DNA of 61,929 nt, counting the filler, from Basidiobolus ranarum (taxonomy: Eukaryota): NCBI GenBank assembly GCA_040143965.1. It is 22 parts of 22 records of this genome, joined end to end, with 100 filler letters (N's around TTAATTAATTAA, not from the genome) between each part and the next. Parts side by side here need not be neighbours in the genome. Positions count along the whole stretch, not along the records: positions 50,785 to 53,497 come from JASJQH010009920.1; 21 more parts are not named here. The stretch is one strand, 5' to 3'. The translations under genes were made by a program, and so were the position numbers. Below the pieces are notes generated by a model that worked only from the letters and a program-made list of their open reading frames with translations, had not been told where the DNA came from and searched no databases. Positions 5,561-59,219 of this stretch are shown one piece after another (within the stretch, counting starts at the first letter, position 1; every line of letters starts with the position of its first letter).

Positions 5561-5939
5561 NNNNNNNNNNNNNNNNNNNNNNNNNNNNNNNNNNNNNNNN
5601 NNNNTTAATTAATTAANNNNNNNNNNNNNNNNNNNNNNNNNNNNNNNNNNNNNNNNNNNNTTCCAAGCTTGGATTTCGTCAACATAACCGGCTTCGTCAG
5701 GAGCGCTATAAGTGTTACCTAAAACTAGGGTTGTGTTCAGAATATCTGTGGGAGTAAAATCAGCCATTTTTGGGGCAATTTGGACAAGTTCAAAATTTTC
5801 AATATGGAATTGCAAATCCTCACATTACTCACATATTTATATAATATATGTTCTGATTTTCAGTTAAGTGATATTTGACTAAGTAATCTGAACTAATTTA
5901 TATATGATGTATATGTTTAATGGCTTTCCCACACTTTCA

Positions 5940-11317: not shown

Positions 11318-14043
11318 AATGGTTGGATATGAATAGAGATCCTGTACGGTTAATTCAAATCCAGCTTTGTGAGCGACACCAACAAGTCTTATGGCTAGGA
11401 TAGAGTCACCTCCAATAGCAAAGAACGAATCATATACCCCAATGGAATTTATAGGAATATTAAGTACTCTCGACCATAGACTCGTCCAATGCTTCTCAGT
11501 AGGTGTCCTAGCTCCAACATACTCCCTGCCACTAGACTGATTTATTAGCATTAAATCAGCTTTATCGATGGTAGTATAGAAGGAGGCCAATAATTTACGA
11601 TCAATTTTATCACTCGTTGTGGTGGGCATCCGGTTGATTGGGATCCAAATAGTAGGCATCATGTACGAAGGAAGTTTGTTCCTAAGTAGGTGCCTTATCT
11701 CGACGATATAAGAGGTGGCTGTATCAAAATACACTTTCTTCAGTAATTCAATAGAGAGGCTATCATGGAACAATTGATCAAAGACAATGAAGGCAACAAG
11801 GACCTCATGATTGGTACTTTCATCAGTGACCAAGGGAAATACACAGACACTTATGACTTTGGAGTGACCATGAATTGCATGCTCAATCTCATCTAACTCA
11901 ATTCGAAAGCCGCGAATCTTGACTTGGTTGTCCTTTCTACCGATCAGCTCTACTGAGCCATCTTCATTAAATCGAGCAAGATCGCCAGTCTTGTACAATC
12001 GTTCCCCAACAACAAATGAAGTGGTTACGAATACTTTCTGTGTAAGATCTGGTCGGTTCAAATATCCCCGGGCTAATTGAGGTCCGGCAATACACAGTTC
12101 TCCTACTGTCCCAATAGGAGCGGGATAGTTATCGTGACCAAGGATATATATCCTGTTACTACCAATTGGCTTCCCAACATTACTACACGATGTATGCTCG
12201 TTCAGTCGAGGATTTACCAGGACATCCACTGCAGCTTCGGTAGGCCCGTAGGCGTTGCTAAGTTCTACGTACGGTATCCATATGTTACGGGCTATTGTTG
12301 TCATCATCTCACCACCCATCATCAGGCGCTTCACTGAGGGTATCTTAGTCGGGTCAATCAGTGTTGCAATAGTTGGAGTCAGCGTAATTGTTGTAACATT
12401 CATAGTATTTATACAATTCTCCAGATCAGAGATCAAGGTTTCCTTCGAAGTCAGTGCGATAGAAGCTCCAGCAGCAAGTGTACAAAAAATATCGATTACC
12501 GAAGCGTCAAAGGTATAATTGGCGAACTGTAGCACAGAATCATCGGGAGTGAGATTCCGTACTTTTCGAAGGGCTTGGATGTAATTGGCAACAGCGCAGT
12601 GTTCCAGCATGACTCCTTTTGGTGCCCCAGTAGATCCAGATGTATATAGTACATAGCACAGATTTGTAGGGCTAAGTTCTTTAACTTGCGGGTTTTCGTA
12701 TGAAGATGATTTGAGAGCTTCTTCGGTATCAAGGAGAATAAGAAGCTTGCTGCCGAAGTTTTGCTGGTATTTCCTTTCTGTCAACATGATCTGTGCTTGT
12801 ATCTCATCGAGAATAAAGTTATTTCGCTCAATCGGATTGTTTGGATCTAGCGGAACATATGCACCACCTGCTTTGAGTACTGCCAACATCGCCACTATCA
12901 TGAACACCGACTTGTCAAGACAAAGAGGTACCATTGCCTCTGGACGGACACCGAGTTCTATCAAATGATGAGCAAGTCTATTAGCTCTTTGGTTCAGATC
13001 CGCATAGGTGACATATTCAGATGTTTCAAACTGCACTGCAATATTGTCAGGATGAATGAGTACATTCTTTTCAAACAGGGAATGAATATAGGTAACTTCG
13101 GTATCACTGATGCTTTTGCCACTCCAACTATCCAATAGTACAGATTCATCAGATGTTATAATGCTCATATTTTTCACTAGAGTATAAGGGTCACTTAAAA
13201 TAGTTCTCAATGCTGCTATGAAATGGTTGACGATCCATCGTGCTTCAAACTCGGTTACTACCTGTTGGTTGTATGTTAATGAAATCTGGTGATTCGATCC
13301 TTGACTACTCAACTCCATCACGACGGGATAATTGGCAGGCATGGATGCTGTTATCTCTTTCAGCCCAATTGCTGCGAGGCTTTGCGTTGTGTCTACCTGG
13401 TCCAGATTCTGAATGACTATGAGAGAATCAAACAGGGAGCTTACACCTTCATCGCAGCAATGCTTGAGAATATCCTGTAATCCAACAGTCTGATGCTGGC
13501 CTTGTTCAATCTGAGTAGCGCGTATCAGCTTCATCAAACTCAAAAGAGATGAATCATCTGGCAAAGAGATACGAGTTGGCAGTGTATTGATACATGGGCC
13601 ACAGATATCTTGTATATCCTTGAGAGGAATATTCCTTCCCGAATTCACAGCACCAAACACAACATCTGAATTTCCAGTGTGTACTTTCAATACCATTGCC
13701 CACGCTAGGTAAGCGATTGTGGCCATTGTAATGGCATGAACACTAGTCAAAGAATTGAAATCAGCATTCAACTCCTCAGTAATTTGTGACGAACATTGAA
13801 GTTCTCCCAAACCAAAAGCTGATTTAGCCAAGTGTGTTACTGGTGCATTGTTAAGCGCTATTTTCCAAAAGTCAAGTGACTGGTTTTTATCCAACGACAA
13901 AATGTAATCGATGTACGTATTGTACGAAGGCCTAGAAGGTGTACTGATGTCTAGATATGCAGCACGAACGTCAGTTTCGATATGGTCCATAGACCAGCCA
14001 TCATAAAGGACATGATGAATGGTCCATATAAGATAGGTGGCTG
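11318..14043 (-). CDS. Nonribosomal peptide synthetase, internal C-A-T module (open at both contig ends)
   Basis: Frame is open upstream of the track start and gives the C-domain core HHVLYDGWS. A-domain motifs YTSGSTGAPKG, FDAS, NAYGPTE, GELCIAGPQLARGYL, YKTGDL, GRKDNQVKIRGFRIEL, LPSYMMP, DKIDRK; carrier motif FFAIGGDSI. No intron in 2.7 kb. Confidence 0.97.
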
Positions 14044-19789: not shown

Positions 19790-20853
19790 ACGTTACCGAG
19801 GGATTCACAAGCTTGTTGGACACGCTTGATCATAGTCTTCTCGGCTTCACGAATGAAGACACGTGGGTCGTAGTACTTCTTGTTGGGCTTGTCGGCACCC
19901 TCGGGGTTACCGATTTGTCCTTGAAGGTATCCCTTGTTCTTCTCGTAGAAGTTCTTGAGACCTTCCCAGTAAGCCCATTGAGTATCAGTATCAACGTTCA
20001 TCTTGATGACACCGTTGGAGACAGCGATCTCAATCTCCTTCTCGGTAGATCCAGAACCACCGTGGAAGACGAAGTAGACAGGCTTGTCAGATTCGCACTT
20101 CAATTGCTCCTTAACATAAGCTTGGTGGACACCCAAGATTTCAGGCTTGAGGACAACGTTACCAGGCTTGTAGACACCGTGGACGTTACCGAAAGCGGCA
20201 GCGATGGTGAACATGTCAGTGATGGTGGAGAAGTTGCGGTAAACATCCCAGATATCTTCAGGGGAAGTGAAGAGGGAGTCTTTGTCGACGTGGGAGTTAT
20301 CAACACCATCTTCTTCACCACCGGTGATACCGATCTCCATCTCCAAAAGACAACCCATAGGAGCAAGACGCTTCAAGTAGTCCATGCAGATAGCAATGTT
20401 CTCTTCCTTAGGCTCTTCGGAAAGATCCAACATGTGGGAGGAGAAAAGAGGTTCACCGTTAGCCTTGAAGTAAGCTTCATCAGCTTGGACCATACCCTCG
20501 AACCAAGGAAGGAGCTTCTTGGCGCAATGATCGGAGTGGAGGACAACGGGGATTCCGTATTCCTTAGCAACAGCACGGACGTGGTGAGCTCCGGCAATAG
20601 CTCCAAGAATACTGGCCTTTTGACCTTCGTTGGAGATACCCTTACCGGCGTAGAAAGCGGCACCACCGTTAGAGAATTGGACAATAACGGGGCACTTCAT
20701 GTCACGAGCAGCCTCGAGGCAAGAGTTGATGGTGCTGGAGGAGGTGCAGTTGACAGCGGGGATGGCGAACTTGTGCTCACGAGCATAGTCGAAAAGTTTT
20801 CTAAGGTTGTCACCAGTGACGACACCAGCGGGAACAATATCAAGAATACCCAT
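19790..20853 (-). CDS. FBA1: Fructose-bisphosphate aldolase class II, copy 1 (last few codons cut off)
   Basis: HSDHC, SSHMLDLS, FGNVHG, VFHGGSG, KMNVDTD, KYYDPR; intronless, strongly biased codons; TATAAA at ~20910-20916 on the minus strand. Confidence 0.97.
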
Positions 20854-21543
20854 GTTAAATTATAAAAGCTTATAGTTTGGGATAACTAAATTTTTTGAAC
20901 GAGAGCTTCATTTATAGACAATATTTTCAGCTATACTAGCGACATCTCTCACTTTGCATTGATGACAAAGATAGGCCTATTAAGGTCCATACCCGATTTG
21001 TATGCCGATAACCTGCATTCATCAAATCTCCGACTTCGTGAGATCTTCCTATTTGGCAGCTAAATACCTGGGCCAATTTTTATAGTATCTCTACACCTGT
21101 CTAGCCTTTGAGTAGATGAGAATTCGAATCGAAAGGCATTAAACCAATGATCTGATTAAGAATTTGTTGATATAACACGCGGATTCATTTATGGATACCT
21201 CTGGATACCCTTGAACTTGCTGGAAACAAGTATCTCCAATCACTTAACTGCATGAGAAATGGGCCAAAAGGGAAAGTAGTAAAAAAATATAATACGGATC
21301 GCATGAATAATACCAATTTTCTTTTCCTAAAACCCGGTATTAGTAGTCGATCATCTGGATTGACTATTGCTTGATATGGTTTGATGGAATATATTACGTA
21401 GGGAGTATTCCATTATAAAAACTTATCGTAATGACTATTCGATACTACTTAATACCAGGTTTGCCCGAAAATATGCTAAGAAACAGTTGTCGAAAATATT
21501 TCGTTTATTATATTCTACGGGGTTAAGATTTGTTTAGGAAAAT

Positions 21544-22512
21544 TTACAAGTTGTTGACGTTACCAAGAGATTCACAAGCTTGTTGGACACGCTTGATCAT
21601 AGTCTTCTCGGCTTCACGAATGAAGACACGTGGGTCGTAGTACTTCTTGTTGGGCTTATCGGCACCCTCGGGGTTACCGATTTGTCCTTGAAGGTATCCC
21701 TTGTTCTTCTCGTAGAAGTTCTTGAGACCTTCCCAGTAAGCCCATTGAGTATCAGTATCAACGTTCATCTTGATGACACCGTTGGAGACAGCGATCTCAA
21801 TCTCCTTCTCGGTAGATCCAGAACCACCGTGGAAGACGAAGTAGACAGGCTTGTCAGATTCGCACTTCAATTGCTCCTTAACATAAGCTTGGTGGACACC
21901 CAAGATTTCAGGCTTGAGGACAACGTTACCAGGCTTGTAGACACCGTGGACGTTACCGAAAGCGGCAGCGATGGTGAACATGTCAGTGATGGTGGAGAAG
22001 TTGCGGTAAACATCCCAGATATCTTCAGGGGAAGTGAAGAGGGAGTCTTTGTCGACGTGGGAGTTATCAACACCATCTTCTTCACCACCGGTGATACCGA
22101 TCTCCATCTCCAAAAGACAACCCATAGGAGCAAGACGCTTCAAGTAGTCCATGCAGATAGCAATGTTCTCTTCCTTAGGCTCTTCGGAAAGATCCAACAT
22201 GTGGGAGGAGAAAAGAGGTTCACCGTTAGCCTTGAAGTAAGCTTCATCAGCTTGGACCATACCCTCGAACCAAGGAAGGAGCTTCTTGGCGCAATGATCG
22301 GAGTGGAGGACAACGGGGATTCCGTATTCCTTAGCAACAGCACGGACGTGGTGAGCTCCGGCAATAGCTCCAAGAATACTGGCCTTTTGACCTTCGTTGG
22401 AGATACCCTTACCGGCGTAGAAAGCGGCACCACCGTTAGAGAATTGGACAATAACGGGGCACTTCATGTCACGAGCAGCCTCGAGGCAAGAGTTGATGGT
22501 GCTGGAGGAGGT
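21544..22512 (-). CDS. FBA1: Fructose-bisphosphate aldolase class II, copy 2 (5' truncated)
   Basis: Protein identical to copy 1 over the shared length; offset 1767 bp; ends GNVNNL*. Confidence 0.96.
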   Translation of the reverse strand, partial: TSSSTINSCLEAARDMKCPVIVQFSNGGAAFYAGKGISNEGQKASILGAIAGAHHVRAVAKEYGIPVVLHSDHCAKKLLPWFEGMVQADEAYFKANGEPLFSSHMLDLSEEPKEENIAICMDYLKRLAPMGCLLEMEIGITGGEEDGVDNSHVDKDSLFTSPEDIWDVYRNFSTITDMFTIAAAFGNVHGVYKPGNVVLKPEILGVHQAYVKEQLKCESDKPVYFVFHGGSGSTEKEIEIAVSNGVIKMNVDTDTQWAYWEGLKNFYEKNKGYLQGQIGNPEGADKPNKKYYDPRVFIREAEKTMIKRVQQACESLGNVNNL

Positions 22513-25728: not shown

Positions 25729-28153
25729 TGATAAGAGTGCTTAAGGGATTTGGAAGTGTTTTGGACAATATTTGGATTTGTGAATTAGAAATTTAAGTTT
25801 TCTCAAGTTGAATATGTCCTATTTATATTTTACTATGAAGTAAGACTATTGTATGTGCTTAGATTATAGTAAACATGCCTGTTAAGCATGGGTGAAAACT
25901 TGAGGTGATTTGGAGAAAATTTGAGAAAATAGTTAAAATTGGTAAAAGTGATCTAATTGATATTTCTATCAATTAGAGCAATAAGCACATGTATTTTGAA
26001 TGACAGAGTTGAGTGCTAAATAATGGGAATATGAATAAACTAACTACTAAATAAAGAGTAGCTATTTACCTAATTTAAACATTCTCACTCAACTAATTAT
26101 TTTGTATTTCTCTTAAACCCAACTCATATCTCTATAATTCAAATTGTGCTTTAGCTAAAGGTTTGGATAAGATATCACTATCATTTCTTCAGTAGGCCAA
26201 TAGACAAGTTCAATTATATTGTTCTCTATTGCTTCTCTAACAAATGTTGCCCAATATCTATATGTTTTGTTCTAGCATGAAATGTGGGGTTTTTAGCTAA
26301 TGAAATACAACTTTGAATGTCTTCAAATACAGTAATAGCACACTTTTGCATATATCCTAAGTCTGTAAATAACTTCCTTCACCACATAGCTTCTTGTGTA
26401 GTAGCAGAGGCTGCCATATACTCTGCTTCTGTAGTGGAAAGTGCTACAGTTGGTTGCTTCTTGCTATTCCAAGTTATGGCTCCATTACCATAGGGAGAAG
26501 TGTACTCAGTTGTTATTCTTCTATCATCAAAATTTCTTCCCCAGTTTGCATCACTGTTGCCTTCAAAATTTTGTGCATCAGGAATGGCAGAGTATTCCAG
26601 AACTAGATCTACAGTTCTTCTGCAATACCTGAATATTCATTTTACTGCAATTTTATGCCCAGATCCTGGATTTTTGAGATATTAGCTGACTGTTCCCACT
26701 GCCACAGCAATGTCTGGATGTGTTCCAACCATTGTATACATTAAACTACTCACCATGGATTGATTAGGGAACCCCTGGCTTTGATTTGAGTCATTTTGCG
26801 TCAAATCAGATGAAATTTTGATTAATTTCACATTGGGATCTATCAATGTTGATACAGCCTTGCTTTTCTCCATTTTGAAGGTTTTTAGGATATCTGGGAT
26901 ATATTTAGACTGATTCAGCATGATTTTTAGATTGGATTTATCTCTCTTGATTTAGATTCTAAGAAAATAACTTAATTCACCCATATCAGCCATCTCAAAT
27001 TTGTTTGATTAGCTGTTTTTTGGTCTGATTGGGTGCTTATTGAACAGTTGTGGCAGTGATCAAGTCATCCACATATAGTGCCAGGACAAGGACCTAGTTC
27101 TGGTTGTTTTGATGTAAATACTGTAATCTGCTATGCATTTTTGGAATTCTAGTGATTCCAAATATGTATCTTTCTTTTTGTACCATCCCCTGGGTGCCTG
27201 CTTGAGTCCTTTTAGCAATTTGTTCAGTTTATTAACCATATCAGGATGTTTTCGGTCAAAAAATCCATCTGGTTACTCCATATAAATCTCTTATTCCAGA
27301 TTACCATTGAGAAAGGCTGTTTTTATGTTGATTGGTGTGAATCAAGGTCATGGATGGCTGAAAGTGCCAGAACTGATCTAATGGAGCTAAACTTTGCTAC
27401 TGGAGCAAATGTTTTATTAAAATCAACTCCTGGTGTCTGGGAATAACCTTTTGCAACTAATCTTGCTTTGTACCTTTCTATGGTCCCATTAGCTTGGTTT
27501 TTGACTTTGTTAACCCATTTGCAACCTACGGGCTTTCTCCCAGCTGGTAGAGGACTTGAAACCCATGTTTTATTGTCCTGAAGTGAAGAAAACTCATCAG
27601 ACATTGCCTTCTCCCATAATTTTGATTTTGGACATTCCATAGCTTGATCTAGAGTCTGTGGCTTGTCACAGAATGCTGGATAAGTACATACATCACCATT
27701 GGAAGTGTTCCACCAGTTTCCTGGCTTATTTCTTGTCATGGATGATCTTCGAGGTCCTGAATCATCCTCTGATGGAATTGGGACTGGAACTTTGGTTGAA
27801 TAGGGCTCAGATACAGCTGGTGCTTCATCTGACACTTCCTGAATATTGCTGTTTGTGTTTTCTGGATCAAGAGCTGCAATATGAGGAGCAAAATTTGCTT
27901 TTTCATCAAAAATCAAATTTCTGCACTTAAATAACTTCTGATTTTTGGTATTTAGGAGTGTATAAGCCTTATATCTGTCACAGTAGTCAAGAAATATGCA
28001 TTTGCAGCTTTTTGGATCCAATTTGGAGCATTTTTGAGCTGGAATCAGGTAATTTTCTGTGCAACCAAAGATCCTGAGATGATCTACACTTGATCTTGAT
28101 CCATATAGGGCTTCAAATGGAGTAGAATTTTGTAGCAATCTTGTTGGGCAGCT
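25729..28153 (-). mobile_element. Copia family A 3' half: INT-RT-RNase H, polypurine tract and 3' LTR (25729-26081)
   Basis: ORF 27323-28138 has KPVGCKWV..RYKARLVAKGYSQ..FAPVAK; YVDDL, KQPTVALSTTEAEY; TTGAGTGAGAA immediately precedes the TG...CA LTR. Confidence 0.93.
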
Positions 28154-49362: not shown

Positions 49363-50442
49363 TTATAATCGGGCTAACGTCTCATGAGCTTTGGCAAATG
49401 TGTTATTCGATACAGCAGCAATTGTTGATAACTCAAGAGCTAAGCAGAATGAGGCTACAGTCTCTGCAAAAGCCATTTTACGACCCACTCCTAAACAATC
49501 AAGCATTTTTAAGTGTTTCGATTGATCACTATACTGTGTTCCTCCGCCCACTGTACCAACAAGTAGTGACGGAAAGTAGAGTGACATATGCAGATTATCA
49601 TCATCATCGATATCCATGGATAACTGACTCCATGAGCTCTCAGCAATTGAGCCTGCATCTTGGCCGCATGAAAGATACATAGCCGCTAAGATGTTAGTGG
49701 AGTTGATGTTCATTCCTAGAGTACTCGTTCTGATTGAGGATTGCATAGCCTCAATATAGAGTCTGTAAATATCTCTAGGATGGACCTTGAGATACTTGAG
49801 ACATGCATCTTTACTCACAATTCCCCAGCTTCTAACTTTTACTCCACGAGTAGTAAAGGATCTCATAAGAGATAGCTTCTTTTCAGCCGTAGTATTTCCT
49901 TCCACAAAGCTCTTCTCGAATACGAACCTGCTGTTTAATGTTTTGTTGGTCAATAATTCATCACAGACTTTCTGGGTCGCGATAGTAACAATGTTTTGTC
50001 CAGCGGCATCACTAGTAGTATATGTAAGCTCCAAGTGCACAGATCTAGCGAAAACATACGGCTGGATTTTAATGAGTTTCCCATGATTAGTAGTGCTTTC
50101 GGCAATCTTCTTTAATTCAGTAAATTGTTCTTTGATCCAGTCAGCAAATTCTAACGTTAATTTGGTCGAAGACAGCACGAAAACAGGACTCCGAGATATT
50201 TGTTCCTCGTACGCTCTGGCTGATATTCCACCACAAACTTCGAATACCTTCACCCCGCGAGAGCAGGAAGCAACTAGAGTAGCTTCGGTAGTGGCCAATG
50301 GAGCTTTAACTCTTTTTTTCTGGTGAAAACCATATATGGTCAGTGGCGGTGTCACTCCAACTGGTACTTTAGTATATCCTATGAAGTTTTCGATGCGGAC
50401 TTGCTGGTCAGCACTATCGGTATTGGAAGTTGATTCATACAT
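49363..50442 (-). CDS. HMG-CoA reductase, class I catalytic domain only (359 aa, no membrane domain)
   Basis: ENFIG, PLATTEATLVAS, DAAGQNIV, EGNTTAEKK, GQDAGSIAESS, VGTVGGGT and C-terminal AH; intronless; TATATAA about 35 bp upstream. Confidence 0.92.
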   Translation of the reverse strand: MYESTSNTDSADQQVRIENFIGYTKVPVGVTPPLTIYGFHQKKRVKAPLATTEATLVASCSRGVKVFEVCGGISARAYEEQISRSPVFVLSSTKLTLEFADWIKEQFTELKKIAESTTNHGKLIKIQPYVFARSVHLELTYTTSDAAGQNIVTIATQKVCDELLTNKTLNSRFVFEKSFVEGNTTAEKKLSLMRSFTTRGVKVRSWGIVSKDACLKYLKVHPRDIYRLYIEAMQSSIRTSTLGMNINSTNILAAMYLSCGQDAGSIAESSWSQLSMDIDDDDNLHMSLYFPSLLVGTVGGGTQYSDQSKHLKMLDCLGVGRKMAFAETVASFCLALELSTIAAVSNNTFAKAHETLARL

Positions 50443-50784
50443 ATTATGTTGGTCCTTTTAGTTTGAATATGTTCTTATATAGGTAAGTCCCAAACGGCCA
50501 AGTTCATTGCAATGCTCACCCAAACAAAATCAACATTAAAGTACACCTGGAACATCCAAGGTCATCATTGGTACTGTTTATAATTGATATTGCACATAAT
50601 TGTTATTTATGTTTCAACCGATTGGATTACTATTATCCAACCATGTCTAATGGATACCATCATACTTACTACCCTTGACTTGCGNNNNNNNNNNNNNNNN
50701 NNNNNNNNNNNNNNNNNNNNNNNNNNNNTTAATTAATTAANNNNNNNNNNNNNNNNNNNNNNNNNNNNNNNNNNNNNNNNNNNN

Positions 50785-50928
50785 GGTCGTGGTCGATTTG
50801 GAAGAGGCGGAAGGATTGGTCGTTTTGGTGGGCGCAGATTGGGTAGGTTTGTCAGATTCGGGAGATTTGGTGGTTGGGGATCTGGGTGGAACAATGATTG
50901 TGGTGGTAATGATTGCGGAGATTGCTAG
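50785..50928 (+). CDS. Secreted Gly/Arg-rich peptide precursor, copy 1 (3' end only; true frame not in ORF track)
   Basis: GRGRFGRGGRIGRFGGRRLGRFVRFGRFGGWGSGWNNDCGGNDCGDC*; downstream sequence also similar to that of copy 2. Confidence 0.85.
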   Translation, partial: GRGRFGRGGRIGRFGGRRLGRFVRFGRFGGWGSGWNNDCGGNDCGDC

Positions 50929-51440
50929 TCAACTAGCATCTGAAATATCAAAACCCTCAATAATTCACACAAATCTGCTTATACCAACTTTTCATTGCCT
51001 TCATCTTATCAATCAACTTAATAAAAAGGCTCTGCAAAGGAGGTAATACTAAACTATCGCGAAATCTTGATATCTGCCGTTACTTTGTTTCGTAACCGGA
51101 ACCAAAAAATTGACAACGCAACTAATTTATAGTTATTATGCCATCCCGGAATAAATTTTGCGTACACTCTGTACTAAGCAAGTATAACATTATTCGCCCT
51201 AAGATTGGTATATTAACTTGAGAAGACATGATTACATTGACATTAGAGTCAGTGGTTACTAATATGACCAATATAACCCACTGCTTTATATATATGATTA
51301 TAACAGTCCGAAAATGATCTCACTAACTCTCTAGATTTCATTTGTGAAGCTCACAATTCTATATCGGCAGCTGGTATCTAATCTTCAGTAACACTATTTC
51401 AAAATATCTGTATCAATGGAATAAATTTAAACCTTGGCTG

Positions 51441-51447
51441 TATAAAA
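51441..51447 (+). promoter_or_regulatory. TATA box of precursor copy 2 (paralogous box at 52835-52841)
   Basis: CTGTATAAAA lies exactly 76 bp before the MYLQ ATG in both copies. Confidence 0.7.
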
Positions 51448-51516
51448 TGACCTGATAGTACCCAGTTTTTTGACAGTTTCAATTTGCTTTTCAACAATTG
51501 ATCTATCATGCTCAAT

Positions 51517-52197
51517 ATGTATCTACAAACTACCTTTATCAACACCATCATGTTTGCCTTCCTCGCAAATGCATCTGACACTAAACGAAGTCTACCTAGT
51601 GAACATATTGCTTTAGTCACTGCTACTACCTTCCCAGCGAGTAAGAACATGATGCTTGAGACTGACACTGACTTCTTCATTCCCAATTTTATATTAAAAG
51701 AGGAGATCGAGCTCACTCCCGAAGAATCCCAGTCGCGTCGTGTCAGCCTTGGAAAAATATTTGCTCGCTTGTCCAAGTCCTTTTCTGGTAAGATAGGGAT
51801 ATTCAACCCATCCAAGTTACATAAACCTGGTAAACATGTAACTACAATGCATCCTGAAACTGATAACCAAGATTTGAATACTTCTGTGAACTCAGACAGT
51901 GTTACCGCAACTGATAGAGACAACGGTAATATTGCTGATATTGATTATAGTGCGGATGATGAAGGAAATATGGATTTAGATACTTCTCCTGAAGAAACTG
52001 AGTTGCGACGTGGAGGGCGTGGTGGGCGCGGACATGGGGGTCGGGGTCACTTTGGTCGTGGCCGGTTTGGAAGAGGTGGAAGGTTTGGTCGTTTCGGTGG
52101 GCGCAGGTTTGGTAGGTTTGGCAGATTCGGGTGGTTTGGTGGTTGGGGATCCGGGTGGAACGATGACTGTGGTGGAGATGATTGTGGAAATTGTTGA
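51517..52197 (+). CDS. Secreted Gly/Arg-rich peptide precursor, copy 2 (complete, 226 aa)
   Basis: Signal-like N-terminus MYLQTTFINTIMFAFLANA-S, two acidic spacers ending in RR, C-terminal GRF repeats and C-x4-C-x2-C. An in-frame ATG at 51508 is an alternative start. Confidence 0.85.
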   Translation: MYLQTTFINTIMFAFLANASDTKRSLPSEHIALVTATTFPASKNMMLETDTDFFIPNFILKEEIELTPEESQSRRVSLGKIFARLSKSFSGKIGIFNPSKLHKPGKHVTTMHPETDNQDLNTSVNSDSVTATDRDNGNIADIDYSADDEGNMDLDTSPEETELRRGGRGGRGHGGRGHFGRGRFGRGGRFGRFGGRRFGRFGRFGWFGGWGSGWNDDCGGDDCGNC

Positions 52198-52910
52198 TCA
52201 ATATGATTCCAAAAATTGAAATTCTTCAATATCTCTCACAAGTCTGTTTATACCCAACTTTCACATCCTCATTACCCTCTTCCTATTGCCTAATCCAATA
52301 AAAAGGATCTGTATAGGATGTAATACTGAACTATTTCAAAAACTTGATATCTGCAGCCGCTTTGTTTATGTCATCATGAAACAAATTTCGCATAAGCTCT
52401 ACGCTAAGAAAGTATAATGCCGTTCACCTTTAAGCTGGTATATTATCTTGGGAAAGTATGATATTGTTGCATTTTAAATTTGCTGAATATAGCATTAAAT
52501 TTTATGGATAAAACTGAAACTTTTAAATCTATTCTAAGTGTTGAAATAAATAAACTGTAGCAATACCATCACTGATATATCATGCTGAAGCAGTGCTATT
52601 AATGATACAATAACATTTACTTTGCTCTAAAAATTGCACAGTGTTAATGCGCAACACTGATAATTATCTACTTATAATTGGGAATACTACGTAAAAGTTT
52701 ATTAATAGAAGTTCATCTGGTTCATAAAAGCACATCTCATGTGTTAAACTCATATCCATATATCAGGAGCAAAAGTTTATTCATCAGTAACGCTATTTTA
52801 AAATGACTGCGTCATTATTCTATCAAATTACCTGTATAAAACTACCAGTAGAGATCTTGTTTTTTGACAGTTTCGATTTGCCTTCCAACAAACCATTTAC
52901 CATTACAAAG

Positions 52911-53497
52911 ATGTATCTGCAAATTGCTCTTATTAATGGCTTGTTATTTACTTCCCTAACTAATGCATCTGATGCGCAACTAAACACACCTATTGCGAAT
53001 GTTGCTTTAGCTACAGCTACTACCTTCCCAGCAAGTGAGAGCATGATGCTTGGAACTGACGCTGATTTCTTCATTCCTGATTCCATATTGGATGAGGAGG
53101 TTGAGCTCACTCCCGAAGAATCTCAGTTGCGCCGTGTCAACCTTGGGAAGATATTTGCTCGCCTGTCCAAGTTCACCCCGGGTAAGATAAAGAAACTTTA
53201 TTCAACCAAGTTACATAAACCTGGTAAACATGTAACAACAATGCTTCCTGGAGCTGGTGAACAAGATACAAATACTCCAGTCACTTCTGACAGCATTACC
53301 GTACCTGATATCGACTATAGCCCAAATGAGCAAGGAGATGCAGATTTAGATACTACTCCTGAAGAAACCGAGCTGCGACGTGGAGGGCGCGGTGGTCGAG
53401 GTGGCCGTGGTGGTCGCATACGTGGAGGTCGCGGTCGGGGTCGCTTTGGAAGAGGGCGAGGACGCTTTGGCCGTGGCCGGTTTGGAAGAGGTGGAAG
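52911..53497 (+). CDS. Secreted Gly/Arg-rich peptide precursor, copy 3 (3' truncated)
   Basis: Colinear paralogue of copy 2. The track start at 52803 lies upstream of the TATA box, so MYLQ at 52911 is preferred. Confidence 0.85.
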
Positions 53498-53597
53498 NNN
53501 NNNNNNNNNNNNNNNNNNNNNNNNNNNNNNNNNNNNNNNNNTTAATTAATTAANNNNNNNNNNNNNNNNNNNNNNNNNNNNNNNNNNNNNNNNNNNN

Positions 53598-53967: not shown

Positions 53968-56184
53968 TTAGTTTGACGTATGCATATCTCTAGCTTCATG
54001 AAGATCTTCTCTGGCTTGACCATGAGTTGCTTGTCCTTCTGACTTCAATTGTTCATTTCCTAATATAGAGCCCGCTGCTTGCTTGATTTTTCCTAAGAGC
54101 ATGCTACCCAACGCTGAGGCGGTGCCAGTTTCCGCATTAGTAGAGTCATCACGATGGATAGGAGTGTTGTTGGTTGCATCACTCAATCCATTCTCATTGT
54201 GGCTTCTGCCAGATAAATCTCTTTGGGAAAGATGATCGTTAGTCTCTAGTGTACCGCTAGGACCACGGCCAGAAACACTGTGCTCACCACCTAATACGTC
54301 CTTTGAACCAACACGAGAAGAGTTGCTGAGAGTACTGTCACGCTCCAAAGATACATCATGAATTCTCTCGTTATTTGAGCCAGTTGTATTCAAGTCACGA
54401 TTATCAACATCCGATACTCTTGAACCCCCCTGAGGATGAGTAGAATGATTGTTGTAATGTTCAGAACGGTTATTTTTATCTGCCAAACTACTCAAACCAG
54501 AACCGACAGTGACACCTCCAGCTTCAAGAGTACTAGTATGGCTATGAGCCTTATCGTCAACTCCATGGTGATTCGACCCCGAATTGTGAGCGAACGATTG
54601 AAGAGAAGGAGCAAGTGAATCATCATGATTGTGGGCTACATTGGGCACCCCAGCTTCACGAGAGCGTTCGGATAAAGGGTTGGTGGGATCAAAGGTACTA
54701 TTACTACTGTGATTGCGAATACTATTAGAATCATTATGACCGATCTGACCATGTCCTGTAACATCGGTGATTTTGTTAGACTCTACGAGTTTGGTTTCTG
54801 TAGGTCTCAATTTACGTGATGGATTGCCAAAGCTATCAGTCAGTATTTCTTGAGTTGTAAACTCACCATAGTGTGGTTTGATTGTTTCGTGGTTGTCAGA
54901 TAAAGCGGATTTAACTCTGTGACCAGAGTGATCATGGCTTCCGATACTTCTATCAACTGCACTATCTCTGTGTGCACTATTTTCTTGATGGGTAGGGATA
55001 ATGGGTGCGCCGCTTGCCATTCCACTAGCAGCTCCTGAGCCCAGGGCGTTTACTAAATGACTAGAATGATGTTTGTCCCCGTGGGTGTTAGAATCTAACC
55101 CTGAGTTGGCTCCAAATTCACTAGATCTTCCAAGTTCACTGACCACGTTTGTATGATCAGTAGGATTGCTGATGTCATGCTTGTATTCGCTGATTTGGTT
55201 GTCGACTCCGGAGCCAAGTCTAGTGTCTCCACTGCCTGGGAATACAGATTTGTTTCCATCTTGTCCTAACTCGTTCTGAGTACTTCCGGTTCTACTACTG
55301 AGGCTGTCATTGGGACTGAAATTATTGGACACTGGGTGACTGGAGGCCATGGGAGCATTGTGTACTGAACGAGTGCTGATATCGTCATCGGCTCCAAGTC
55401 CAGTGGATCGTGGCTGTGGATCAATATTTTGAGTAGATTTATCATCGAGGGAAGTATTATGAATATCATGGATGAGTTGGCCCATATTGTGAGCATTACC
55501 GATATTGCTATGAGTGCGAAGACTTCCGGGCTGCCCAAGATGTTGATGGTTATGATGACCACTGTGATGTTCACCACTGCCAATTGCATTGGATCCATCA
55601 TAGAAACCACTATCTACTGGGTGATCATGCTGATTATTAAAGGAGTTGTTGCTTCCAAGATCCGCCCCGATAGTATTCTTAGTGCCTTGGGGAGTTGCTG
55701 ACACATCTGGGTTTACTCTATCAGGTGTACTTGTGTGGTCATAGAGGCCAGTGGTTTTGGTATTTGTTGCATATTGATTATTGCTTCCAATATCAGCGCC
55801 AATAGTGTCCTTAGCACTATGAAGAGTAGTCGACTCATTGGGGTTAACTGTGTGTTGACTATCGTGTGTGAGATTGCCACTGTTTAGGCCAGTGAGTCCT
55901 TCGTTCTTGTTGAAACCATGGTCTCCGGGGAAAGATCCCGGGATATTGACAAACGAATCTTGTTCATTGTGAAGTGGCTTCGAGTGATCATAACTGGGAA
56001 GGATGTTATGTGCGGAAGTTTCCAGAGTAGATTTGTCGCGATTTAGGGAGTCACGTCCGAATTCAGGAGTATTTACAAAGGAAGGATCTGTAGTACGTTG
56101 TTGAACAGAGCCAGAAGTGATTGGGTTTGATTGGAAATCTTGGGAGCGGTCATCAGATGGGCGTGTGTTATTGAAAGAGCTCAT
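53968..56184 (-). CDS. 738-aa hydrophilic, probably disordered stress protein with a C-terminal CsbD-like motif
   Basis: Intronless; rich in S/G/N/D/H/T with no Cys or Trp seen; IPGSFPG; repeat KDTIGADIGSNN/KNTIGADLGSNN; C-terminal LGKIKQAAGSILGNEQLKSEG. Confidence 0.8.
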   Translation of the reverse strand: MSSFNNTRPSDDRSQDFQSNPITSGSVQQRTTDPSFVNTPEFGRDSLNRDKSTLETSAHNILPSYDHSKPLHNEQDSFVNIPGSFPGDHGFNKNEGLTGLNSGNLTHDSQHTVNPNESTTLHSAKDTIGADIGSNNQYATNTKTTGLYDHTSTPDRVNPDVSATPQGTKNTIGADLGSNNSFNNQHDHPVDSGFYDGSNAIGSGEHHSGHHNHQHLGQPGSLRTHSNIGNAHNMGQLIHDIHNTSLDDKSTQNIDPQPRSTGLGADDDISTRSVHNAPMASSHPVSNNFSPNDSLSSRTGSTQNELGQDGNKSVFPGSGDTRLGSGVDNQISEYKHDISNPTDHTNVVSELGRSSEFGANSGLDSNTHGDKHHSSHLVNALGSGAASGMASGAPIIPTHQENSAHRDSAVDRSIGSHDHSGHRVKSALSDNHETIKPHYGEFTTQEILTDSFGNPSRKLRPTETKLVESNKITDVTGHGQIGHNDSNSIRNHSSNSTFDPTNPLSERSREAGVPNVAHNHDDSLAPSLQSFAHNSGSNHHGVDDKAHSHTSTLEAGGVTVGSGLSSLADKNNRSEHYNNHSTHPQGGSRVSDVDNRDLNTTGSNNERIHDVSLERDSTLSNSSRVGSKDVLGGEHSVSGRGPSGTLETNDHLSQRDLSGRSHNENGLSDATNNTPIHRDDSTNAETGTASALGSMLLGKIKQAAGSILGNEQLKSEGQATHGQAREDLHEARDMHTSN

Positions 56185-59119: not shown

Positions 59120-59219
59120 NNNNNNNNNNNNNNNNNNNNNNNNNNNNNNNNNNNNNNNNNNNNTTAATTAATTAANNNNNNNNNNNNNNNNNNNNNNNNN
59201 NNNNNNNNNNNNNNNNNNN

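Follow-up and report, generated by a model that had tools for sequence, protein, structure and literature searches.

What do the three tandem genes on a small contig of the fungus Basidiobolus ranarum encode? The contig (JASJQH010009920.1, assembly GCA_040143965.1) fills exactly positions 50785-53497, or 2,713 bp, of the 61,929-base stretch of DNA that we analysed as a whole and call the window; all positions count along it. From the sequence, we give an even chance to the reading that the genes belong to a Basidiobolus-restricted family of secreted, convertase-processed precursors of antimicrobial-type peptides. On this reading the contig holds a portion of a tandem array, made up of members of a multigene family that would encode secreted pre-pro-proteins. 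An N-terminal signal peptide would direct each protein to the endoplasmic reticulum, two acidic segments would offset the charge of two basic segments in transit, and a kexin-type convertase of the Golgi would cleave after an Arg-Arg pair (RR) at conserved PEExxL junctions. Such cleavage would free a Gly/Arg/Phe-rich polycation of 61-78 amino acids and, given one additional cut, a shorter amphipathic cationic helix as well. Outside the cell, the peptides would bind membranes or nucleic acids and act as antimicrobials against competitors in gut, dung and soil.

Three diverged copies of one gene

The original prediction had described three head-to-tail paralogues on the plus strand, and the coordinates, motifs and DNA strings that it gave were all present in the sequence (Table 1). 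It had also held that the contig is broken inside the array at both ends, and this was borne out: each contig end resembles positions 52050-52082 (97% over 33 nt), and the location of both ends within the same repeat explains the break in the assembly. The two ends agree at just 25 of 29 bases, which makes copy 1 and copy 3 separate genes. Copies 1 and 2 are spaced 1,267 bp apart from stop to stop, and copies 2 and 3 are spaced 1,394 bp apart from start to start. At the protein level copies 2 and 3 are 60.7% identical over 163 aa, and their DNA is 71.9% identical over 698 nt, with about 180 bp of promoter included. The DNA of copy 1 is 77.4% identical to that of copy 2 over 314 nt, 3' flank included, and the two C-termini share 83.3% identity over 24 aa (tblastn). 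Between copies 2 and 3 the ratio of nonsynonymous to synonymous substitution rates (dN/dS) was 0.26, with a dS of 0.75 (Nei-Gojobori). The copies are thus real, diverged, old paralogues under purifying selection. The predicted B. ranarum protein P0002 (K7432_000592) shares 78% identity with copy 3 over 157 aa, as against 61% for the adjacent copy 2, which suggests that the array itself is old and that the duplication is earlier than the divergence of the two source organisms. From these identities, the window would stem from a Basidiobolus-like source other than the B. ranarum assembly in the database searched.

The coding starts were assigned to the methionines of the sequence MYLQ, at 51517 in copy 2 and 52911 in copy 3, matching the homologues. 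Two upstream ATG codons, at 51508 and 52803, were considered as starts and rejected, since the homologues start at MYLQ and the extension of copy 3 would cross its TATA box. Antisense open reading frames (ORFs) at 51399-51680 and 52823-53086 were rejected as genes as well: they lie opposite the conserved sense frame, and it is the sense frame that has homologues and the dN/dS of 0.26.

Alternating charge blocks joined by PEE junctions

Each protein is built of five parts, namely a signal-like N-terminus, an acidic pro-piece, a cationic stretch, an acidic spacer and a Gly/Arg/Phe tail. The signal-like N-terminus had been part of the original prediction, and a hydrophobic core followed by A/T-x-A before residue 20 was found in all eight of the proteins with a Gly/Arg/Phe tail (GRF-type) that were scored; the maximum of hydropathy over 11 aa was 1.5-2.5 in the 12 proteins scored for it, and the n-region of copies 2 and 3 has no basic residue. 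In the eight GRF-type proteins, the first pro-piece comprises 56 aa with a net charge of -4 to -10 and closes with E(I/V)ELTPEESQxRR. The cationic stretch that follows (stretch 1) has 12-31 aa and a net charge of +3 to +9, and its first 12 residues are VNLGKIFARLSK-like, with a helical hydrophobic moment of 0.53-0.70 (0.58 in copy 2). The spacer is 51-78 aa long, carries a net charge of -10 to -15 and closes with D(L)D(T/S)(S/T)PEETELRR. The tail has 61-78 aa and a net charge of +8 to +16, and in the seven complete GRF-type proteins it contains 39-43% Gly, 20-30% Arg and 11-13% Phe; the values for copy 2 are G 43%, R 20% and F 13%. The tail ends in GWGSGWNDDCGGDDCG(D/N/S)C, and the polycation is thereby capped by an acidic end with three Cys, GW..W(N/Y)DDC(G/S)GDDCG(D/N/S)C, which is present in copy 1 (50878-50927), in copy 2 (52145-52194) and in homologues; the Cys count is usually three, with four in P0004 and two in P0007. 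These per-segment charges confirm the alternation of anionic and cationic blocks that had been likened to classic antimicrobial precursors. Over the whole protein the charges nearly cancel, and the net value lies between -3 and +1 in six of the seven complete GRF-type proteins.

An AlphaFold2 (AF2) model of the protein had a mean predicted local distance difference test score (pLDDT) of 51.5 and a predicted template modelling score of 0.20, and was disordered outside three helices. These are the signal helix at residues 2-20, a short helix at 57-61 and a helix at 68-89 that runs over the amphipathic head of stretch 1; a helical turn of three residues is modelled at 98-100. Outside the signal region, the region of helix 68-89 was the best modelled, with a mean pLDDT of 64-76 in blocks of ten residues over residues 61-90, and residues 23-52 of the pro-piece scored below 50.

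The two junction motifs ELTPEESQ(S/L)RR and DT(S/T)PEETELRR were both found in copies 2 and 3, as had been stated. A six-frame translation of the whole window contained PEExxxRR at 51718, 51988, 53112 and 53358 only, all in these two copies. The proposal that the leader is duplicated holds in a reduced form: alignment of the two halves with hhalign (E 9e-4) supports a real duplication, limited to about nine residues (TPEESQLRR vs SPEETELRR). The segments between the junctions are unrelated to each other, and outside the nine aligned columns the two halves share nothing.

Relatives in a single genus, with exchanged basic segments

The original prediction did not recognise the family, and our searches agree with this: there was no significant Pfam match and no PDB sequence match, and the relatives are all hypothetical proteins. 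Copy 2 had no Pfam match, and copy 3 matched only Colicin_immun at 17.4 bits, against a cut-off of 22. A word-indexed search of 5.8 billion proteins gave seven matches among 5,534 candidates, all of them hypothetical proteins of B. ranarum. Ten matches at E <=1e-3 came from a complete HMMER run against 1.84 billion representatives, and at least nine, all from B. ranarum, from a profile search in which the best 8,000 candidates by common words were scored. With the non-repeat part of P0010 as the query, two proteins were found in B. meristosporus CBS 931.73, and their locus tags are consecutive. The named relatives are thus unannotated hypothetical proteins of B. ranarum or B. meristosporus only, in a tally by genus that counts relatives with a named source and leaves out P0008, P0009, P0012, P0013 and P0015. 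The array ORF is colinear with proteins predicted in B. ranarum, and consecutive locus tags on contigs of equal length suggest tandem pairs both in this species (018647/018648) and in B. meristosporus (357304/357305).

Searches further afield returned no relative. In a metagenome scan with a narrower alignment, 595 stretches matched the pattern and none encoded a relative. A profile search of the PDB gave five chance-level matches on RG-rich tails, the best at E 0.052 and none below 0.05; a PDB sequence search with the tail alone had no match, and the ESM Atlas gave no usable match with either the whole protein or the tail alone. Neither Pfam nor the PDB gave any full-length match to a family of structural or cell-wall proteins, which leaves the original prediction standing on this point. 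Among the matches listed for Basidiobolus literature on antimicrobial peptides, Kex2, glycine-rich secreted proteins and the secretome, a description of the family was not found.

Comparison of the GRF-type proteins with the distant members showed which parts of the protein are held constant. Identity was 0.56 at junction 1 and 0.51 at junction 2, and fell to 0.17 in stretch 1, 0.21 in the spacer and 0.21 in the signal region; no other non-repeat segment is as well conserved between these groups as the two junctions. The distant members retain the two PEE junctions, and their basic segments change in kind. In the B. meristosporus proteins P0010 and P0016 these consist of GRW repeats and a His/Lys-rich stretch; P0011 has an Arg/Lys-rich stretch and DYDRYRR repeats, and P0014 has a Pro/Arg-rich stretch. 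Because the junctions stay constant while the polycations are exchanged, we read the basic segments as candidate releasable cargo, and this is the main argument for a precursor of peptides.

A wider version of this reading is a modular, genus-wide cassette system for ribosomally made, linear, polycationic defence peptides, which would be the first in fungi; we put it forward tentatively, as possible rather than probable. The acidic pro-piece and PEExxL(RR) would form a portable neutralising and processing unit, two per precursor, joined to at least four cargos: an amphipathic helix, a His/Lys-rich segment, a Pro/Arg-rich segment and Gly-Arg-Phe/Trp/Tyr repeats. Where RR is absent, a protease other than Kex2 would read the PEExxL junction. 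The layout would be convergent on the prepro-peptides of amphibian skin, in a fungus that inhabits amphibian guts. The known antimicrobial peptides of fungi are for the most part non-ribosomal peptides or defensin-like proteins stabilised by disulfides. A gene-encoded family of linear polycations of Gly, Arg and aromatic residues with self-neutralising pro-pieces would be a new source of such peptides, and would bear on how a gut-dwelling zygomycete rich in nonribosomal peptide synthetases (NRPSs) competes with bacteria. The conserved PEExxL with its exchangeable cargo is a simple handle for mining further members and offers a testable case of modularity between pro-peptide and cargo. The peptides are small enough for synthesis, which makes the hypothesis directly testable.

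Evidence that weighs against release at dibasic sites

Several observations count against the precursor reading, beginning with the cleavage sites. Of the 15 sequences compared, 11 have RR at junction 1, the others having HR (two), LR (one) and KG (one). At junction 2, RR directly follows PEExEL in 7 of the 15, and the remaining forms are RH, RG, HQ, three instances of WG, YRR and, in degenerate form, LARR. As RR varies at both junctions, the invariant element is PEExxL and not the dibasic pair, and the sequence gives no ground for a strict dependence on Kex2. P0002, to which copy 3 is most closely related, has lost the RR pair at both junctions, which read HR and RH, in an intact frame; either this protein would no longer be processed, or RR would not be the determinant. 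The canonical Kex2 site is a dibasic RR with Arg at P1, and yeast Kex2 favours an aliphatic residue at P4, as described by Outram et al. (bioRxiv 10.1101/2020.05.27.120113); here, Leu stands at P3 and not at the preferred P4. No dibasic site was found between stretch 1 and the acidic spacer, and cleavage at RR only would yield a net-acidic middle piece of 90 aa instead of a free cationic peptide. The claim that each gene releases two cationic peptides is therefore not supported, since it calls for a cleavage that is not encoded in the sequence. Six of the seven complete GRF-type proteins have a further RR inside the tail, so the tail itself might be cut.

The tail and the overall charge raise further objections. 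No segment is better conserved within the GRF subfamily than the tail (identity 0.89), with a dN/dS of 0.08 in a repeat alignment that is uncertain; in many antimicrobial families, by contrast, the mature region is hypervariable. The acidic C-terminus with its three Cys is not accounted for by a peptide precursor. Nor does the balance of charge extend to all members, being broken in P0006 (+6), P0007 (+9), P0010 (+10) and P0014 (-13).

Comparison with known peptide precursors

Dermaseptin-type precursors of amphibians begin with a signal peptide, go on to an acidic pro-piece that a dibasic site closes, and finish with a cationic peptide; their prepro region is conserved and their cargo divergent. 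The array precursor differs from them in having two such units and repeat-rich cargo, and lineage and sequence are unrelated. Glycine-rich antimicrobial peptides of animals offer a parallel for the tail. Caenacin genes are clustered, as the array paralogues are. The caenacin CNC-4 is described as a secreted antimicrobial of 40% Gly with GGYG repeats that is membrane-active and binds DNA (PMC8181894). The array tail likewise has about 40% Gly in short Gly-aromatic(-Arg) repeats, and the resemblance is one of functional class and not of homology family. Unlike the caenacins, with which no sequence homology was found in the protein, HMMER and profile searches, the array proteins are far higher in Arg (20-30%), have acidic pro-pieces and an acidic tail containing Cys, and come from a fungal producer.

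Among fungal systems, Ece1 of Candida is one secreted precursor that is cut at dibasic sites (KR) into several peptides, of which candidalysin is a hydrophobic helix. The original prediction had drawn this parallel, and it extends to the layout only; there was no match to it in the Pfam, protein, HMMER and PDB searches, the array sites are RR rather than KR, and the cargo is polycationic and Gly/Arg-rich instead of a hydrophobic helix. The effectors with a Kex2-processed pro-domain (K2PP; bioRxiv 10.1101/2020.05.27.120113) also combine a disordered pro-domain with RR, which in the array lies at aa 74-75 of 226. Their mature domain is folded and often Cys-rich, whereas the mature part of the array protein is predicted to be disordered and is of low complexity; moreover, the array has two units of pro-domain and cargo in series.

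By definition, Kex2-processed repeat proteins (KEPs) have a signal peptide and cores that recur between Kex2 sites (PMC7329392), and one survey demanded at least three repeats (Le Marquer 2019, PMC6339444). The array proteins resemble KEPs in their signal-like N-terminus and in having dibasic junctions in a disordered protein of secreted type, in a genus reported to be rich in KEPs; like many KEP types, they are restricted to one genus and tandemly duplicated. They have no repeated core, as there are two PEExxxRR junctions per gene and only the nine-residue junction is duplicated, and their products would be 31-78 aa long, not short peptides. KEP type S-3 is reported as a Basidiobolus-only type of seven Tyr/Asp-rich members (PMC7329392), and may correspond to the DYDRYRR branch seen in P0011. 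The repeats of P0011, which contain RR, are also similar in kind to the DWRR repeats of Laccaria MiSSP8, which are cut by KEX2 in vitro (bioRxiv 10.1101/218131). The array genes differ from MiSSP8 in carrying GRF repeats in which RR is rare, and no homology was detected.

Alternative explanations

The chief alternative is that the proteins are secreted block polyampholytes, intact or partly cut, which would serve as structural, adhesive or condensate-forming material such as a spore or capilliconidium adhesive, a wall matrix or an extracellular coating. Cation-pi contacts between Arg and Phe, Trp or Tyr, together with the charge blocks, would drive self-association. RG/FG-type sequences phase-separate, and the almost complete disorder of the AF2 model would suit such a material, as would the strict alternation of charge blocks with near neutrality of six of the seven complete GRF-type proteins, the strong conservation of the tail within this subfamily and the fact that several members do without the dibasic sites. 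With an odd number of Cys residues at the C-terminus, intermolecular disulfides could form. We nevertheless consider it unlikely. Homology to wall or structural families was absent from the Pfam and PDB profile searches, the C-terminus is acidic and Cys-rich rather than hydrophobic and has no signal for a glycosylphosphatidylinositol anchor, and the chemistry of the basic segments shifts radically while the junctions are conserved, which fits releasable cargo better. Extracellular material of this kind would be unusual too, as an RGG/FG-type low-complexity sequence outside the cell.

Three further alternatives keep the idea of processing and change the target of the peptides or their chemistry. 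Processed Arg-rich or amphipathic peptides might act on insect, amphibian or mammalian cells as host-directed effectors or cytolysins, in the manner of candidalysin in Candida, which we regard as improbable: the secreted-type layout with dibasic junctions, the amphipathic helical head of stretch 1 and the fact that Basidiobolus inhabits animal guts and can be an opportunistic pathogen (PMC9391592) are in keeping with it, yet no effector or toxin was among the matches of the Pfam, protein, HMMER and PDB searches, and the head, at about 12-20 aa, is short, with a cationic rather than a hydrophobic character. Slightly more doubtful still is a KEP-type, pheromone-like signalling precursor whose peptides would steer the development of the fungus itself. 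B. meristosporus is the KEP-richest genome of its survey, leading 1,461 assemblies with 43 KEPs (Umemura 2020, PMC7329392), and the DYDRYRR repeats of P0011 resemble both the Asp/Tyr-rich type S-3 and the DW[K/R]R motif of MiSSP8 (bioRxiv 10.1101/218131); against this, a short core that recurs between dibasic sites is lacking in the array genes, their products, as long polycations of low complexity, would not resemble known pheromones, and multiple diverged paralogues argue against a single system of receptor and ligand. Very improbable, finally, is a peptide of ribosomal synthesis that is modified after translation (RiPP), in which PEExxLRR would be the leader recognition sequence for tailoring enzymes encoded nearby. 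A short conserved motif duplicated before each variable segment, in a genus described as rich in secondary-metabolite genes (bioRxiv 10.1101/2025.03.31.646025), is what such a system might look like. The cores are 31-78 aa long and of low complexity, short repeated cores of the dikaritin type are absent, and the contig consists of the array alone and carries no tailoring gene; the suggestion of a RiPP-like system made at the outset thus found no support. In the survey that defined KEP type S-3, none of its seven members lies beside a DUF3328 (UstYa) gene (PMC7329392), which would count against a RiPP if S-3 is kin to the array family.

Flanking sequences of the copies and boundaries of the contig

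Copies 2 and 3 share more than their coding sequence. The 10-mer CTGTATAAAA, a TATA box, stands 79 nt 5' of the ATG in both and nowhere else in the window, where 0.35 occurrences are expected by chance, and a block 3' of it is conserved between the two copies. At junction 2 a CTG codon of copy 3 is aligned to TTG in copy 2, which is compatible with the standard genetic code.

Table 1. Features of the array contig and of the linkers that bound it (positions along the window; + denotes the plus strand).
Feature	Position	Strand	Description	Basis or remark
Assembly linker	50685..50784	.	N44-TTAATTAATTAA-N44	Divides array contig from unrelated contig
Copy 1	50785..50930	+	3' fragment of paralogue, 47 aa + stop; Gly/Arg/Phe tail and C-terminal motif GWGSGWNNDCGGNDCGDC	Translation
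Copy 1, conserved 3' flank	50931..51090	+	AATAAAAAGG at 51020-51029	77% over 314 nt to copy 2 end and flank
Copy 2, promoter and 5' leader	51335..51516	+	CTGTATAAAA at 51438-51447	Conserved with copy 3 upstream region
Copy 2	51517..52197	+	Complete gene, 226 aa + stop	
Copy 2, signal-like peptide	51517..51573	+	aa 1-19, MYLQTTFINTIMFAFLANA	Hydropathy; A-x-A at -3/-1; AF2 helix 2-20
Copy 2, acidic pro-piece 1	51574..51741	+	aa 20-75, net -4; ends in junction 1, ELTPEESQSRR	
Copy 2, cationic stretch 1	51742..51834	+	aa 76-106, net +7; amphipathic head VSLGKIFARLSK	
Copy 2, acidic spacer	51835..52011	+	aa 107-165, net -13; ends in junction 2, DLDTSPEETELRR	
Copy 2, Gly/Arg/Phe tail	52012..52197	+	aa 166-226, net +8; one internal RR; C-terminal motif NDDCGGDDCGNC; stop	
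Copy 2, conserved 3' flank	52198..52367	+	AATAAAAAGG at 52297-52306	
Copy 3, promoter and 5' leader	52734..52910	+	CTGTATAAAA at 52832-52841	
Copy 3	52911..53497	+	3'-truncated by contig end within Gly/Arg/Phe repeat	
Copy 3, junction 1	53112-53135	+		
Copy 3, junction 2	53358-53381	+		
Assembly linker	53498..53597	.	Assembly linker	One of 21 identical linkers

The window is made up of 22 contigs of about 2.7 kb each, chained end to end in descending order of size. Across its whole length we counted 42 runs of N44 and 21 copies of TTAATTAATTAA, a sequence of the six-frame-stop type; the linkers, identical in each case, span 2732-2831, 5561-5660 and so on to 59120-59219. As the window is a chain of unrelated contigs, the genes that flank 50785-53497 in it are not genomic neighbours of the array. 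Two candidates for such context, a fragment of HMG-CoA reductase at 49363-50442(-) and an ORF of 738 aa at 53968-56184(-), were rejected for this reason, each sitting on another contig. The 738-aa ORF is rich in Ser, Asn, His and Gly, and its sole Pfam match is a weak, C-terminal one to a CsbD-like domain (E 4e-4, below cut-off).

Other genes of the window

Elsewhere in the window, a whole contig forms one open frame at 11318-14041(-) and encodes an NRPS fragment (Condensation, AMP-binding, AMP-binding_C, PP-binding) cut at both ends. A class II fructose-bisphosphate aldolase lies at 19792-20859(-), in a stretch with long open frames on either strand; on the plus strand, neither the ORF at 19792-20865 nor the one at 21538-22512 had a Pfam match. 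In a tblastn search, copy 3 gave the same weak match at 20384-20506 and at 22151-22273, which hints that two contigs are alike in sequence. A transfer RNA scan of the whole window returned 0 genes, and a fragment of a Ty1/copia-type retroelement, with RVT_2 and a retroviral SH3-like domain, is present at 27323-28153(-).

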